A stretch of 64,000 nucleotides of DNA, from positions 59,085-123,084 of the forward strand of contig CALXWZ010000002.1 of NCBI GenBank assembly GCA_944392555.1, in the 5' to 3' direction. The translations under genes were made by a program, and so were the position numbers. The notes below the pieces were generated by a model. The model was given only the letters and a program-made list of their open reading frames with translations. It was not told where the DNA came from and made no database searches. Source of the DNA: an uncultured Alphaproteobacteria bacterium (GTDB lineage Bacteria; Pseudomonadota; Alphaproteobacteria; CAAHEQ01; UBA3637). Within the stretch, counting starts at the first letter, position 1. Every line of letters begins with the position of its first letter. Positions 9,808 to 50,058 of the stretch are shown here, piece by piece.

Positions 9808-12800
9808 ATGAATGATTTGATTACGACTTTCGGACAAGTGGCATCACCGCAAACATTTGATGATATTCGCATTTCCATTGCATCACCGGAAAAAATCCGT
9901 GAATGGTCGTTTGGTGAGGTGACACGACCCGAAACAATAAACTATCGGACATTTAAGCCGGAGAAAGACGGTTTGTTCTGTGCAAAAATTTTCGGACCGG
10001 TAAAAGATTACGAATGTTTGTGCGGTAAATATAAGCGGATGAAATATCGCGGGATTACTTGCGAAAAGTGCGGTGTGGAAGTGACATTATCCAAAGTGCG
10101 CCGTGAGCGGATGGGACATATTGAATTGGCTTGTCCGGTAACGCATATTTGGTTTTTAAAATCCTTGCCGAGCCGTATCGGTACGCTTTTGGATATGATG
10201 TTAAAGAGCTTGGAAGCCGTTTTGTATTTTGAAAAATACATTGTGATTGAGCCGGGTTTAACATCATTAAAACAACATGATTTATTAAGCGAAGAACAAT
10301 ATCAAGCCGCATTGGAAGAATACGGCGAAGATGCATTCCGCGTGGGAATCGGGGCCGAAGCAATCAAAGAAATGCTTTCGCAAATTGATTTAAATGCCGA
10401 AGCAACGCGTTTACGCGCCGAGTTGATTGGCACAACTTCCGATATGAAACGCAAGAAGATTGTTAAAAAATTAAAATTGGTAGAAGCCTTCTTGGAATCC
10501 GGATCACGTCCGGAATGGATGGTGTTGGATGTGTTGCCGGTGATTCCGCCCGAATTGCGTCCGCTCGTGCCGTTGGATGGCGGTCGGTTTGCCACATCTG
10601 ACTTGAATGATTTGTATCGTCGGGTTATTAACCGCAATAATCGTTTGAAACGGTTATTGGAATTACGGGCACCGGAAATCATTATTCGCAACGAAAAGAG
10701 AATGTTGCAAGAAGCCGTTGACGCGTTGTTTGATAACGGTCGTCGCGGTCGGGCCGTTGCCGGTATCAATAAGCGTCCGCTCAAATCTTTGGCAGATATG
10801 CTGAAAGGTAAGCAAGGTCGCTTCCGTCAAAACTTGCTCGGTAAACGTGTGGATTACTCCGGTCGTTCGGTGATTACGGTGGGTCCGGAATTGATGTTGC
10901 ATCAATGCGGGTTGCCGAAGAGAATGGCTTTGGAATTATTTAAACCGTTTATTTATTCAAAATTGGAACAACGCGGATTGGCAACAACCATTAAAGCCGC
11001 AAAGAAAATGGTGGAAAAAGAAAAGCCGGAAGTTTGGGATATTCTTTCCGAAGTGATTCGGGAACACCCTGTTTTGTTAAACCGTGCGCCGACATTGCAC
11101 CGCTTGGGTATTCAAGCCTTTGAACCGGTATTGATTGAAGGTAAAGCCATTCAGTTGCACCCGTTGGTTTGTACGGCATTTAACGCCGACTTCGACGGTG
11201 ACCAGATGGCCGTGCACGTTCCGTTGTCGTTAGAAGCACAATTGGAAGCACGGGTATTGATGATGTCAACCAACAACATTTTATCACCGGCCAGCGGAAA
11301 GCCGATTATTGTGCCGACGCAGGATATTATTTTGGGCTTATACTATCTTTCCATGGAACGCGACGGCGAACCGGGCGAAGGAATGGTGTTCTCTGGTCCG
11401 CAAGAAGTGGAACATGCGTTGTTTGAAAAAGTTGTTTCGTTGCACGCCAAAATCAAAGTGCGCTTGACGATTATGGATGATGACGGACAAAAGAGAACTA
11501 AAATTGTTTCAACAACGCCGGGCCGTATTAAATTGGCTGCCATCTTGCCGGATAACAGCAAGATTCCGTTCAGCTTAATGAACCGCCTGATTCGTAAGAA
11601 AGAGGTTTCGGAAATTATTGATGCCGTTTACCGTTATTGCGGACAGAAAGAAACATGTATCTTTGCCGACCGCGTAATGGGATTGGGTTATCGCCAAGCT
11701 GCTTTGTCGGGTATTTCATTCGGTAAAGACGATTTGATTATTCCGGAAGCCAAAAAAACATTATTGGCCGAAACAAAAGCCAAAACGGCGGAATACGAAC
11801 GGCAATATCAAGACGGTTTGATTACGCGTTTGGAAAAATATAACAAAGTGGTTGATGCTTGGGCGAAGTGCACGGATGATATTTCCGATGCGATGATGAA
11901 AGAAATTTCAAAAACAGAGCCGGGCAAGCCGATTAACTCCGTTTACATGATGGCTCACTCCGGTGCGCGTGGTTCTGCCACACAGATGCGTCAGTTAGCC
12001 GGTATGCGCGGTTTGATGGCTAAACCGAACGGTGAAATTATTGAAACGCCGATTACGTCCAACTTCAAAGAAGGCTTAACCGTTATGGAATACTTTAACT
12101 CCACGCACGGTGCTCGTAAAGGTTTGGCGGATACGGCTTTGAAAACGGCTAACTCCGGTTATTTGACACGGCGTTTGGTTGATGTTGCCCAAGATGCCAT
12201 TATTACGATGGAAGATTGCGGAACGGAAAACGGTATTACGATTCAACCGATTATTGAAGGCGGTGATGTGATTGCCACAACCGGTGAACGGATTTTGGGT
12301 CGCACGGCTGCCGAGGATATTAAAGATCCGACAACGGGCGAAATCATTGTGCCGAAAAATAAATTGATTGATGAGTATGATGTTGAGAAAATTGATGCCG
12401 TCGGCGTTGAATCGGTGAAGATTCGTTCCGTGTTGACTTGTGAAGCCGAGAACGGTATCTGTGCCGCTTGCTACGGTCGTGATTTGGCGCGCGGAACGCC
12501 GGTGAACTTGGGTGAAGTTGTCGGTATTATCGCTGCACAATCCATCGGTGAACCGGGTACGCAGTTAACGATGCGGACATTCCACGTCGGTGGTACGGCA
12601 CAAAAGGGCGCCGAACAATCCAGCATTGATGTGGGCTTTGATGCCAAAGTCAGATTGACAAACTGCAACGTTATTGAAGATTCCAAAGGTGATAAGATTG
12701 TGTTATCACGGAATTGCGAAGTTTCGTTGTTGGATGCCAATAACCGCGAAAAAGCACGCCACAAATTGCCTTATGGTGCGAAATTGATGGTTGAAAACGG

Positions 12801-32472: not shown

Positions 32473-32703
32473 ATGGCAGAAAAAGTTGTGAATTATGAAG
32501 TATCACGGGATCGTCCGAATATGAAAAAGCCGTTAAGTTGGCATAAGGAGTATTATGAAACACGGCAATTAATGGTTGAGGCGATTAAAGAGGCCTGTCC
32601 GGAATTGTATAAGGTTGCTTGTCAGACAAAAGCAGAAGGATTAAAACAAATCAATATGCGCGTAATGGCAGAGCAACAATGTTCGAGTGGTCGTTCCATG
32701 TAG
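32473..32703 (+). CDS. Small hypothetical protein (76 aa)
   Basis: Strong RBS AAGGAG 8 nt upstream of the ATG. Followed at 32761-32800 by a stem-loop plus a T-run. Confidence 0.4.
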   Translation: MAEKVVNYEVSRDRPNMKKPLSWHKEYYETRQLMVEAIKEACPELYKVACQTKAEGLKQINMRVMAEQQCSSGRSM

Positions 32704-45948: not shown

Positions 45949-46608
45949 ATGAAAAAATTACTTTGTATCGGAGTTGCTTTAACGTTGTTATCGGCATGTT
46001 CAACGTTTGAGCCGGATTTGGATAAAGCAGCCGAAGAACGGGCTGAAAATCGCGCGGAAATTCGCAATGCAATCGGTTGCCAATTTGCAAACGATCATGA
46101 TGCCTACCGCCGTTGCTTGATTTCAACTTATGAACACAATAAGCCGAAAACATTTACAACCGCACAAGATTGCTCGGGTCAACCGGTAGTTGTCGTGAGT
46201 AGCGGAAAGACACAAGGAATGGTTTATGCGGACGGTGTGATTACACAAGCCGGTTCAACACAAACGACGGCAACAACACAAGTTCCTGTTCACCAATTAT
46301 CGGCAGTGCCGTGTGGAACGCAAGCAGGCGATTGTTTTTATACAACACAAGAATTATATGAAGCCCAAGTGGCTCCGTGCACAACATGTGCCCCGAAACA
46401 AGTTGTTGTTGAACAACCGAAAATCGTAACGGTAGAGCAAACGGAAACGATAGAGGAAAAACCGGTAGAGGTAGTTCCTGCACCGCAACCGTTGCCGGAT
46501 AAGACATGGTGGGAAACATATCAAGAAGAAAAACAACCTGTGAAACCGACGGTTGTTTGTCCGTGTCCGGATCCGAATGATCCGTGTCCGCAATGTGTGA
46601 CAAAGTAA
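45949..46608 (+). CDS. Cys-rich lipoprotein (219 aa) at the position where pal is expected
   Basis: Lipobox LLSAC. 14 Cys, including a C-terminal CPCPDPNDPCPQC. No OmpA-like peptidoglycan-binding motifs seen. Confidence 0.65.
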   Translation: MKKLLCIGVALTLLSACSTFEPDLDKAAEERAENRAEIRNAIGCQFANDHDAYRRCLISTYEHNKPKTFTTAQDCSGQPVVVVSSGKTQGMVYADGVITQAGSTQTTATTQVPVHQLSAVPCGTQAGDCFYTTQELYEAQVAPCTTCAPKQVVVEQPKIVTVEQTETIEEKPVEVVPAPQPLPDKTWWETYQEEKQPVKPTVVCPCPDPNDPCPQCVTK

Positions 46609-46620
46609 TTTATGTTTCAA

Positions 46621-46651
46621 AAGGCTTGCTCATCGGCAAGCCTTTTTTATG
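46621..46651 (+). terminator. Rho-independent terminator
   Basis: AAGGCTTGC/GCAAGCCTT 9-bp stem, 6-nt loop, then TTTTTTAT. Confidence 0.8.
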
Positions 46652-47038
46652 ATAAGAAGACAATTATTCTGACCGGTAGTTCTGCAAGTCTTGTAATGGT
46701 AAGTAGTAAAAATCCTTTAAAAACTAATAAGGATTTACAGGAAATTAAAACATAATCATAAGAGATTTGAAATACAATAACAGAAAAACTTTATTTTTTA
46801 TTTGGAATACGGCAAAAAATGTATTTTCATAAAAAAGCGGACTCTACAAAAAGGTCCGTCTAGATGATATAGTATAAAGGGGATTATAACAGAAAAATTT
46901 TGTTGTGCAAGAAAAAAAATAAATGTAGAATAGCGCTGAAAAAATAGGGAGTTAAGTAAAATTCACACATAGGGAGCCAACCAATCATCAAAGCCCTCTA
47001 CATAAACGGACGTTTATGTAGAATGGGGAGAAGAAAAA

Positions 47039-50000
47039 TGAATATAAAACAAATACTTAACTTGGCTTCTTTTTATGCAAAAAAAGTAAAAAGCGGGGAA
47101 TTTGAAGCGAATCGCGCAAAACAAGGGATAAAATCAGCGAATCAAAATAGCTTTACGCGCTTGAAAAATAATCAAAAAGCAGGATTTTCAGCAGAATTAC
47201 AAACGCAACGTGGATTGGATGGTTTGCGCGGGTTGCATGGATTTGGCGGATTAAGGAATGTGCGCGGATTAAGAGGCGCGCGCTTGGCCGAATACGGGCG
47301 GAGTATGGTAGAAATGCTGGGCGTGCTGGCGGTGATTGGGGTCTTATCGGTTGCGGGAATGATGGGCTATCGGTATGCAATGGATAAATATCGGTCAAAC
47401 GATATTATCTATGAAGTGAATCTGCGCAATCGGGATACATGGCATAAATATCAGCTGAAAGGCTTGCCCGAAAATGAAGATATGTTGAATGAATGGGCAG
47501 AATATACGTCAACGGGTTTTCCGATAGGGGTTTATTTACGGTCAACGGATATGTTTGATGTGCAAGTAGATGATGTGCCGAGTCGGGTATGTTTAAATGT
47601 GTTAAATACAAATTTAGAGGGGCCGTTGCTGATATGGGTGCCGACGGGAGAAGATGAAAAACAACTGTTTGACGGCACCAATGCCGAAGAGTTGTGTCAA
47701 TACGGGGAAGAAGATGCCGAGAATGTATCTATTGTATTTACAACGAGTTTAAGTCAATACGGCGCGGAACTCGGGAATGGAGAAGCCGTGGATGAGAACG
47801 GTCGGCCCATGCGCTATTGTTTAGATGACGGAGATTGCACGGGGACGTGCGAACGATGCGGAAGCGATTATAAATGCGAGTCCACGTGTCCTGACGCAAC
47901 ACCGATATGCAGTGCCACGCAAGGGAAATGCGTGCGATGTGAAGTAAACGATGATTGCCCCATCAATCAAATCTGCAACGAAGCGACGAATGAGTGCGAA
48001 GAAATCCCCGAAGCATGTGCGGAAGATGAGTTTCGGAGCCGGAACGGGGCGTGTATTCCATGCTCACATCCGTCTAATGTGATAATTAACGGAGATGAAA
48101 CGTTCGGAGCAGACAAAGCGACGGGTGCGGAGTTATGTGCAAACTGTGCGAACGAGGGAACGGCGCGCAAGTTAGAAACGGCGGGGGATACAACGTATTG
48201 CTCCTATACCTGCACAAAGGGCATTAGCGTGCAAGCCTCGAATGGTTCTTGTCAGCCGTGTTTTGATGAAAGCGGTAATCCAACCACGAATACTTTTTTT
48301 ATTGATGCCGGAACAGAATCGCGTTCGCAATGTTTAGCCTGCGGTAATCGGGAATGGATACAATTTGATAATAACCACTTTTGTTTTCCTAAATTGGAGT
48401 GCTCCGATAATCAATTTGCAGGATATGGAGAAACAAGGTATCAAAATACCGAGCCAAGATGTCGTGATTGTTCAGATTCAATAAAACGCTCCAGCTTATT
48501 TTATCATGCCTTTTCAGGACCAACCAGTTTGCAAAAATTAAAAGATATGTGCGATGCGTGCACGAATCGGTATGTGTGGGACGATGTGTGTTTTCAAAAA
48601 TGCGAACAACCTGATGAAAATAGTGAAGAAAGCACGATTTGTTTAACTGACCCAGGTAATGAAAAGTGCAAACGAAAGTGGCAAAATGCGTATGGTGATT
48701 GTTTTGATTGTGATGCTCTCGGCGTTAATACAACGTTGACTTATTATGTTTCAAGTGTCAATCCCGAATGGGAGGAACTATGCGAGAAGTGCGGTCGGCA
48801 AGTTGTAGACGGCGGCTATTGTGCACCAAAGCAAAATACATGCGGTACCGGGAAAATTATGGACGTCAGCGGTAATTGTGTTGCGTGTGATTCTGCAACC
48901 GTTGCAACGATTGTATCAGATGAGGTTTCCGGTTGCACGGCGTGTAATACGGATGGCAAAGAATTACGCTGGGTTGTTCGTGTAACAACATCAGGGGGAA
49001 CTGCTTTACAGTGCATGAAAAAATGTGGCGAGGGTCAATTTCAAAATAGTAGCGGAGGGTGTGTTGATTGTTCAACAACATCAGCTGTTTCTATTGGAAG
49101 AAGTCCGGATTTAACTAATTTATGCACACAATGTCCCACGCCGAATGAAAGATTTATTCCATTGATTGAAACAACCTTTTGCGGGCTTAAAACATGTCCT
49201 GAAGAAACATTTCATACGTATGTTGGTTCATGCGCTTCATGCGATACCCCAGGACGACAGCCTATATATGGGTTGACAGCAGAGCAAGAAGCAGAATGCG
49301 AGGCGTGTGGAAATAGAATTAATCTAGGTGGTTGTGTGCTCATTAACCCAGGCGTAAGTGGTGTATGCAACAGTGTTGAAAATGGGGAACACGAAGATTA
49401 TCCGGCAGGTGATGGCGTCTTTTTCAGAGATTATTATGGTAGTTGTCAGCGTTGTGATGATCCGAAAACGTATAGTCCGAGTAGTATAGCACAATGCAAG
49501 AGTTGCGGAAACCGAAGAGTAGATGGTTGGTGCGCTTACGGGCTCTGCACAGATGGCTCTACATTCCTCAATGTGAATAATCAATGTATCAGTTGCACAA
49601 CCTCATCCAGAACCGAGATTGATAACACGATAACTTCCAAAGATTCTTGTATGGCGTGCGATAATAAACGCGTTATGACGGCGGAAGATACCAGCGGTGC
49701 TACCAAAGCCTATTGCGTGAATGATTGCTTTGGGCAACTCCAAAACGTGAACGGTCAATGCGGAGGTAGTTCGTGGGGTAATTTTGAAATCGGAAGTGAT
49801 GAAACATCAAAAAGCATGTGTCGCGATTATGACCGTGTTGTATATAGTAAAGTAAACGGCGACCAGACGAAGTGGTATTGCTCTTCTGCGCCGAGAGACG
49901 GCTATTTTATCAACATCAACGGCGGATTAAGCAGTTGCACAAGCGGATCAACGGAAATCCCCGATAGCAATGATGCACGGAATTTATGTCTGGCTTGCTC

Positions 50001-50058
50001 TACCGCACAACGCACCGTTGTTGAAAAAGACGGGCGCTTTTATTGCGAAAAAAGTTGA
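47039..50058 (+). CDS. Very large Cys-rich modular protein (about 1006 aa) with a type-IV-pilin-like N-terminal hydrophobic segment
   Basis: GGGGAGAAG RBS before the ATG at 47039. The segment G|RSMVEMLGVLAVIGVLSVAGMMGYRY resembles a class III (prepilin) signal with E at +5. It is followed by about 10 degenerate modules of the form C-x2-C-[GNDT]-N-[RK]...C...C. About 90 Cys in total. Confidence 0.75.

Follow-up and report, generated by a model that had tools for sequence, protein, structure and literature searches.

Locus and domain organization

The stretch of DNA analyzed here (64,000 nucleotides, referred to below as the window) comes from an uncultured alphaproteobacterium (GenBank assembly GCA_944392555.1, contig CALXWZ010000002.1, positions 59,085 to 123,084 of the forward strand), of whose genome it represents ~64 kb. 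It encodes a giant cysteine-rich protein with a pilin-type N-terminus, which we interpret, on balance, as a modular type IV pilin or type-4-filament subunit carrying a new Cys-rich effector module. The longest open reading frame (ORF) at the locus spans positions 47023-50058 (+) and encodes 1011 aa; residue numbers refer to this ORF throughout, with mature position +1 corresponding to residue 93. The assigned coding sequence is slightly shorter (47038..50058, +, 1006 aa, beginning with MNIKQ), in agreement with the size of ~1000 aa given by the original prediction, which had been made from the letters of the DNA. From its N-terminus onwards, the protein consists of a basic leader of 87 residues that ends in E-Y-G (47038..47298, +), a predicted type IV pilin domain (47299..47772, +; residues 93 to ~250) opening with the hydrophobic alpha1-N segment RSMVEMLGVLAVIGVLSVAGMMGY (47299..47370, +), a 12-cysteine linker segment (47788..48012, +; residues 256-330), and eleven homologous Cys-rich modules of 47-80 aa each (48013..50055, +; residues 331-1011).

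Class III signal-like motif and predicted pilin fold

The motif G-RSMVEMLGVLAVIGVLSVAGMMGYRY, on which the pilin-like reading of the original prediction was founded, is present as described, with Gly92 at -1, Glu at +5, and Tyr at exactly +24, and the same segment has a Gly at +14. Conservation was assessed in 184 distinct N-termini gathered from two homology searches. Glu-3, Gly-1, Arg+1, Ser+2, Met+3, Glu+5, Leu+7, Gly+8, Ala+11, Ile+13, Gly+14, Leu+16, Ser+17, Gly+23, and Tyr+24 were invariant or nearly so in this set, seven of them (G-1, R+1, E+5, L+7, A+11, L+16, and Y+24) without a single exception, and Gly92 was invariant in 57 aligned homologues as well. Eight positions (E5, V9, A11, I12, I13, G14, L16, and Y24) match the canonical pilin/pseudopilin consensus. 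Class III signals are defined by a leader whose last residue is Gly or Ala and by 20-25 hydrophobic residues behind it, frequently including Glu5 (PMC10191384); here, a Gly stands directly before the hydrophobic stretch, and the hydrophobic alpha1-N carries Glu+5. Out of eleven Gsp proteins compared, GspG of E. coli gave the best alignment with the window protein, in register and with 33% identity over 42 aa. Family variants from other metagenome-assembled genomes read G|RTLLEMLAVLAIIGVLS where GspG reads G|FTLLEIMVVIVIIGVLA (tblastn E ~4e-4 in a 1.3-Mb database), and the sister variants GRTLLEMLAVLAIIGVLS line up with GFTLLEIMVVIVIIGVLA of GspG.

The structure was modeled with AlphaFold2 (AF2) from an alignment of 57 sequences (mean predicted local distance difference test, pLDDT, 80.4). 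The modeled alpha1 is a single 49-residue helix (95-143) packed on an antiparallel beta-sheet, i.e., the 'lollipop' arrangement of pilins, the alpha/beta domain reaches ~residue 245, and the Cys190/Cys225 pair within it is invariant in the alignment. When the model was compared with the PDB using Foldseek, the type IVb pilins CofA and TcpA were recovered at probability 1.00, with target-normalised TM-scores of 0.46-0.51. The pilin-like helix noted from the letters was thus an understatement, as the modeled fold and its type IVb matches make this helix part of a complete type IV pilin domain, and residues 93 to ~250 are, according to the model, a complete pilin module.

Pfam and NCBIfam scans of the full protein and of its N-terminal domain gave nothing above threshold, an exact-sequence look-up returned no record of the protein, a PDB sequence-profile search retrieved the N-terminus of Geopilin at a non-significant E of ~0.3, and literature searches on the motif strings and on pilins of gut Alphaproteobacteria returned nothing relevant. 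No other copy of the pilin motif was found within the window. A 76-aa ORF ending in ...SSGRSM* (32473-32703, +) was considered as a broken pilin start and ruled out, as there is no continuation in any frame; we take this ending to be a coincidence.

Cysteine-rich modules

In total, 78 cysteines were counted, fewer than the ~90 originally estimated, and 21 CxxC motifs; nearly all of these cysteines are invariant or ≥ 90% conserved in the 57 homologues (32-88% identity). The linker (residues 256-330) is unrelated to the repeats, with hhalign probabilities of ≤ 2% against every module. Behind it, the at least ten degenerate modules initially proposed turned out to be eleven homologous ones, pairwise hhalign comparisons of the module sub-alignments giving 84-98% probability for most pairs, although the signature CxxC-[GTD]-N-[RK] by which they had been described occurs in only five of them, plus one CxxCGRQ. 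The module pattern is C-x2-G-x-F-x4-G-x-C-x2-C ... strand ... helix-C-x2-C-(G-N-R)-beta-hairpin-C: the first part (C-x2-G-x-F-x4-G-x-C-x2-C) forms a beta-hairpin and is followed by a strand, then a short helix ends in C-x2-C, which is followed by G/T/D-N-R/K in five modules, and the last beta-hairpin carries the sixth cysteine. The last two modules retain four of the standard six cysteines. In the AF2 model, the pLDDT of the modules is mostly 85-95.

No relative of the module was found in the PDB, Pfam, or NCBIfam. A match to a known Cys-rich domain had been named beforehand as the finding that would speak against a new architecture; furin-like, EGF, laminin-EGF, and Giardia VSP profiles or folds did not match. 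A profile search of 1.84 billion representative proteins retrieved only 341 clusters. A pilin-type G-[RK]-x-x-x-E N-terminus is present in 45 of the 130 new module matches, and several more have similar N-termini such as GRTMTEML or GRSMTEML, while other carriers start with ordinary Sec signal peptides (P0250, 2262 aa; P0322, 2474 aa; P0254, P0256, and others). All named carriers come from metagenome-assembled genomes (MAGs) of Alphaproteobacteria. Since it is found behind either pilin-type or Sec-type N-termini, we regard the module as an extracytoplasmic, lineage-restricted, mobile repeat. Within the window, no other copies of it were found; a Sec-signal protein of 439 aa (21059-22378, -), with 32 cysteines and TTTSP(L/I) repeats, did not match the hidden Markov model of the module.

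Leader peptide

The leader contains 19 K/R against 5 D/E, is predicted to be disordered (pLDDT < 30 in the AF2 model), and includes a variable (G-L-x-G)n tract. In the window, this tract ((G-L-[RSNH]-G)n, 47200-47290) has an 18-nt periodicity and a Tandem Repeats Finder score of 47. Orthologues and paralogues differ in the copy number of the repeat, so that leaders in the clade of the window gene are 70-107 aa long. Family-wide, leader lengths range from 6 to ~140 aa, most of them lying between 6 and 20 aa (e.g., MQTKFNEIG|RS and MMTNENG|RS). Prepilin leaders are typically shorter than 30 aa, a limit that both the window gene (87 aa) and its clade exceed. The original prediction was right in placing a long N-terminal extension before the motif, and its ~90 residues become exactly 87 when counted from the real start.

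Compared with the orthologue in L001, the leader has accumulated 10/11/10 substitutions at the three codon positions, and of the changed codons, 19 are nonsynonymous and 5 synonymous. Substitutions are spread evenly in the comparisons with the paralogues in L007 and L026 too, and both the frame and the Shine-Dalgarno (SD)-ATG unit are kept. In the pilin domain, on the other hand, the same comparison with L001 gave 5/3/18 substitutions and 16 synonymous vs. 5 nonsynonymous changes, i.e., purifying selection. Because its substitutions are even over the codon positions, the sequence of the leader appears barely constrained, a pattern that fits a segment which is translated and then discarded, or one that is merely cytoplasmic. 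We presume that the leader is cytoplasmic and removed at G|R.

A large family in gut Alphaproteobacteria

The gene is not a singleton and belongs to a very large paralogous family. The homology search with the full-length protein listed 112 homologues, none of them functionally annotated, and every sampled member named by a source is annotated as 'hypothetical protein'. When one genome per species was scanned, at least 557 related loci were recovered, all in uncultured MAGs, most of whose names refer to guts of animals or humans (ruminant, rabbit, Hadza). Among the loci listed, nearly all are labeled Alphaproteobacteria; two bins (L042 and L049) are labeled Lactobacillales and are probably mis-binned or mislabeled Alphaproteobacteria contigs. 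With a 131-aa member as the query, 7,130 clusters were obtained at E ≤ 1e-3. The MAG SIG53 has at least 22 family members within the ~0.2 Mb examined; the window gene belongs to a repertoire that numbers dozens of genes in each genome.

Small members of 120-150 aa are made of a leader, alpha1, and ~90 residues with 2-4 cysteines. Tandem arrays of four such genes, with leaders of 6-9 aa and pilin-type N-termini, are present in L080 (16025-18203) and L087 (10001-11774), the latter being followed by a DsbA-like Thioredoxin_4 gene (11976-12572). As these small paralogues have the size of major pilins, they lend themselves as candidate subunits of a filament shaft. Other members join the pilin module to different Cys-rich regions, with teneurin-type EGF-like matches in P0106 and P0109. 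The family members lie dispersed between housekeeping genes, and a Pfam scan of the paralogue-rich L084 retrieved housekeeping genes only. Genes of the related loci (L087 19165-20241, L095 17237-18184, L084 13004-14446 and 18467-19219) code for a Fe-only hydrogenase, which is located in L084, and for mTERF, Mito_fiss_Elm1, and ankyrin-repeat domains, which are typical of eukaryotes; together, they suggest an anaerobic lifestyle of the related MAGs, possibly in association with a host or with protists.

Candidate assembly machinery

The sole candidate gene for type-IV-filament machinery encodes a divergent orphan ATPase of the T2SSE family (PilT/ComGA/GspE-like; 33205..34659, -). It was found by tblastn with GspE of E. 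coli K-12 (E 5e-15) and reached 105.8 bits with PF00437 (T2SSE); the best NCBIfam match was PilT/PilU, with 119 bits vs. a cut-off of 319, followed by ComGA, DotB, GspE, and PilB, and the protein stays by far below every curated subfamily cut-off. Its features are a Walker A motif, an Asp box, a His box (STIHATS), and a Pro/Ala/Ser-rich N-terminal region of 220 aa; strict regular expressions had missed it because the Walker A reads GPTGMGKTT. The gene is divergent from rimP-nusA-infB in L075, L093, and L094, adjoins recA in L095, and has more than 2,254 homologues, one of which (P0495) is likewise named from a Lactobacillales bacterium, again probably a mis-binned or mislabeled contig.

The search for further components covered 1.34 Mb, i.e., the window and ~1.3 Mb of related loci, and combined tblastn with GspO, GspF, and GspD of E. 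coli with regular expressions. No homologue of these three proteins was obtained by tblastn. Strict expressions for Walker A, A24 peptidase, GspF, secretin, and Flp motifs returned nothing across all loci, and no pilus operon was seen around eight family members and around two homologues of the ATPase.

Start codon, upstream region, and neighboring genes

The start of the gene was determined from a 5' alignment with the orthologue in L001 and the paralogues in L007 and L026. The ATG at 47023 is not conserved (ATA in L001 and L007), while a block made of a palindrome, the SD sequence GGGAGAAG, and the ATG at 47038 is near-identical in the window and in these three loci despite diverged upstream flanks; on these grounds, the start was assigned to 47038. 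The ORF first described was correct, and the start given for it (47039) was off by one position. Two start codons nearer to the motif, the TTG of L88 behind AAGAGG and the GTG of V80, were rejected as the main start because the palindrome-SD-ATG block is kept at 47038 and indels across paralogues preserve the frame. Internal initiation nearer to the motif, at the TTG of L88 with its AAGAGG, may nevertheless serve as an additional start.

The palindrome is perfect, with 12-nt arms (TCTACATAAACG-GA-CGTTTATGTAGA; 46997..47022, +), lies immediately upstream of the SD sequence, and would be expected 0 times by chance. It was found in L001, L002, L007, and L026 only, i.e., with the orthologue and the paralogues of the window gene's clade, and could represent an operator, or a hairpin in the 5'-UTR, common to this gene family. 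An invertible promoter was also considered and rejected, as no inverted repeats flank the 5' region. Further upstream, a hairpin resembling an intrinsic terminator (46610..46655, +; GGCTTGC...GCAAGCC followed by T6) ends the preceding lipoprotein gene. An inverted-repeat search gave arms of 20 nt, a loop of 6 nt, and the T6 run, whereas the hairpin is absent from the output of a consensus terminator scan, so that the strong terminator proposed earlier holds as an inverted repeat with T6, without being listed by the consensus scanner. The AT-rich upstream gap, earlier put at 370 bp, measures ~415-430 bp.

The neighbors are housekeeping genes, with ruvB, tolQ, a probable tolA, and tolB upstream, and ptsP, a nucleotidyltransferase, and glucokinase downstream. 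A gene for a 219-aa lipoprotein (45949-46608, +) follows tolB and directly precedes the pilin-like gene. This lipoprotein has 13 cysteines and the C-terminal sequence CPCPDPNDPCPQC, and it occupies the position usually taken by pal directly after tolB; it has no OmpA domain and no Pfam match, and in L001 it is conserved in that position. Orthologues of 72-88% identity, including the 86%-identical P0001, share the order tolB-lipoprotein-X-ptsP. The organism is diderm, as the window encodes TolQ, TolB, and an outer-membrane beta-barrel protein. Elsewhere in the window, two adjacent genes (14266-17373 and 17545-20703, +) encode ~1040-aa proteins with BspA-type leucine-rich repeats, which share the N-terminus S-x-[KR]-x-VLS-x-IGMLD-x-PDIE-x-IVRYAG and have no recognizable signal peptide.

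A probable filament subunit with a presumably exposed Cys-rich rod

We consider it reasonably probable that the giant protein is a type-4-filament subunit, and it is probably displayed on the filament as an adhesin or a variable surface protein. The proposed steps of insertion, cleavage, folding, and extraction are taken from established type-4-filament biology (PMC10191384). The protein would be inserted by the signal recognition particle (SRP)/Sec route, with its basic 87-residue leader kept in the cytoplasm and the RSMVEML...GY segment entering the inner membrane as alpha1-N. A prepilin-type peptidase would then cut after the Gly (E-x-G|R); the expectation of a discarded leader is matched, as the leader is nearly unconstrained and the pilin domain under purifying selection. 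The pilin head of ~155 residues and the Cys-rich rod of ~760 residues would fold outside the cytoplasm by oxidative folding, most likely becoming locked by disulfides, after which the subunit would be extracted from the membrane and polymerised via alpha1-N and Glu5. The filament shaft would probably be built of the 120-150 aa paralogues, which would leave the eleven-repeat rod at or near the filament tip, where it could serve as an adhesin or form a variable surface module that resists proteases. A position at or near the tip and a function in adhesion or as a variable antigen are suggested by how bulky the protein is, by how many and how divergent its paralogues are, and by life in the gut; like the cleavage, the disulfide formation, and the incorporation into a filament, they are inferred.

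Several observations weigh against a filament subunit. A mature subunit of ~920 residues is very bulky for a filament, and known tip-capping minor pilins lack Glu5 (PMC10191384), unlike all family members examined here. PF07963 (N_methyl) and TIGR02532-type models give no match to the window protein (E ≤ 1); in small paralogues and relatives, N_methyl tops the Pfam list in register, but with 11-16 bits vs. the cut-off of 21.2. Arg+1 and Glu-3 are unusual for a class III signal, and the leader of 87 residues far exceeds known prepilin leaders. The 1.34 Mb searched yielded no prepilin peptidase, GspF/PilC platform, or secretin, none of the ~95 loci places a family member beside assembly genes, and the ATPase is an orphan tied to the pilin genes by co-occurrence only, which makes the link between them circumstantial.

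Alternatively, the protein could belong to a periplasm-spanning pseudopilus or another non-surface type-4-filament (T2SS-like, i.e., type II secretion system-like, or Com-like), or be a periplasmic protein tethered to the inner membrane by a pilin-derived anchor, with the rod inside the envelope. That neither a secretin nor a pilus operon was found near any member points in this direction, as do an N-terminus that is nearest in sequence to the T2SS pseudopilins GspG, GspH, and GspJ, a sole ATPase that is short and PilT/ComGA-like rather than a canonical PilB, and the diderm envelope with TolQ, TolB, and an outer-membrane beta-barrel protein. We nevertheless judge this placement unlikely: genomes with dozens of divergent paralogues whose ectodomains are hypervariable better fit exposure to the environment, a rod of ~760 residues and eleven modules would likely exceed the length of the periplasm, and the best structural matches are the true surface pilins CofA and TcpA.

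A further question concerns the chemistry of the rod, as the CxxC...CxxC pairs could bind metal in Cys4 zinc-ribbon-like sites, giving a metal-stabilised or metal-binding rod suited to the anoxic gut. The spacing CxxC-x(15-25)-CxxC and the anaerobic lineage (hydrogenase in L084) would agree with this, and at the sequence level the module profile matches only proteins with zinc ribbons or zinc fingers in the PDB (eIF5, eIF2-beta, GATA, SBP), although these matches are non-significant (E 0.1-0.7). Metal binding seems fairly improbable to us, given a module that is always extracytoplasmic (with a pilin-type or a Sec-type N-terminus), six cysteines per module with an even total of 78, and a DsbA-like gene beside the small-pilin array; we favor disulfides, ~39 for the 78 cysteines.

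An ordinary uncleaved signal anchor or internal transmembrane (TM) helix on a generic Cys-rich protein unrelated to type IV filaments, as could be read from the failure of curated pilin signal models on the window protein, its very long N-terminal extension, the same module behind plain Sec signals elsewhere, and the missing peptidase in 1.34 Mb, is unlikely given the fold and the invariance, and indeed has very little probability in our view, because G-1, E+5, G+14, and Y+24 are invariant in more than 180 members, far beyond the needs of a TM anchor, because the 120-150 aa paralogues are made of the pilin unit alone, and because the T2SSE-family ATPase is conserved in the lineage.

The interpretation as a modular filament subunit can be taken further, in a version that we regard as speculative and rather doubtful. 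The family could represent a lineage-specific type-4-filament system of gut Alphaproteobacteria, with a non-canonical E-x-G|R-S-M-V-E signal, dispersed genes, and dozens of giant modular pilins, which would be a bacterial counterpart of the CxxC-rich variant surface proteins that gut parasites have, for variable adhesion or for immune or protease evasion. If displayed, the variable repertoire would be a candidate system for host interaction or antigenic variation in Alphaproteobacteria of the animal and human gut.

Comparison with known systems

Type IV filaments are among the most widespread surface machines of prokaryotes, and much of their versatility is attributed to modular pilins. The family described here adds thousands of pilin-like genes that are invisible to standard pilin signatures in a common uncultured gut lineage, as well as a confidently modeled Cys-rich repeat fold without a solved relative; it would stretch modular pilins to ~1000 residues, and from its invariant E-x-G|R site, a prepilin peptidase of unusual specificity is to be expected.

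The closest precedent is provided by the modular pilins of Streptococcus sanguinis, where PilB is joined to a vWA module and PilC to a lectin module (Raynaud et al. 2021, PMC8179133). As in these proteins, a pilin module with a class-III-type signal is followed by a bulky non-pilin module that is presumably presented by the filament, here a pilin domain (93 to ~250) and then ~760 aa of modules that are also used in non-pilin proteins. The architecture is therefore not as undescribed as originally thought, since pilins with grafted modules are known (PMC8179133), while this effector module and its size are new. Several features differ: the graft is not a known domain but consists of eleven unannotated Cys-rich repeats spanning ~760 aa, IPR012902/PF07963 do not detect the N-terminus, the protein belongs to a diderm alphaproteobacterium, and the genes are present in dozens per genome, scattered among housekeeping genes without a pil locus.

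The type IVb pilins CofA and TcpA are the best structural neighbors, and the leader of the window protein is long, at ~3x the length found in type IVb pilins. Sequence identity to CofA and TcpA and to the large minor pilins CofB and TcpB is 13-16%, and there is no relation between the extra domains. The genes of the present family are scattered rather than grouped with machinery genes as in type IVb systems, and no type IVb machinery was seen at the examined loci. With the T2SS pseudopilins GspG, GspH, and GspJ, the N-terminus is shared in register (G|FTLLEIMVVIVIIGVLA vs. G|RSMVEMLGVLAVIGVLS, or G|RTLLEMLAVLAIIGVLS in family variants), but here there is no gsp operon, no similarity past alpha1-N, an Arg at +1, and a huge C-terminal extension.

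Among other large families, those of Planctomycetes with N_methyl and DUF1559 also consist of tens to hundreds of scattered genes with pilin-type N-termini, as in the present case; unlike the window family, they are recognized by N_methyl models and are without Cys-rich repeats. By analogy only, the CxxC-rich variable surface proteins of eukaryotic parasites (Giardia VSPs) and furin-like/EGF repeats are comparable in their high cysteine content, the dominance of CxxC, and the G-x-C-x2-C hairpin motif, as well as in having many paralogues whose anchor is conserved while the ectodomain varies, and in their occurrence in the gut. Set against all of these, what is new is an effector repeat with neither a profile nor a fold relative, a protein of ~1000 aa with eleven such repeats, leaders of 70-107 aa, a non-canonical signal that hides thousands of genes from annotation, and a fully dispersed gene organization.

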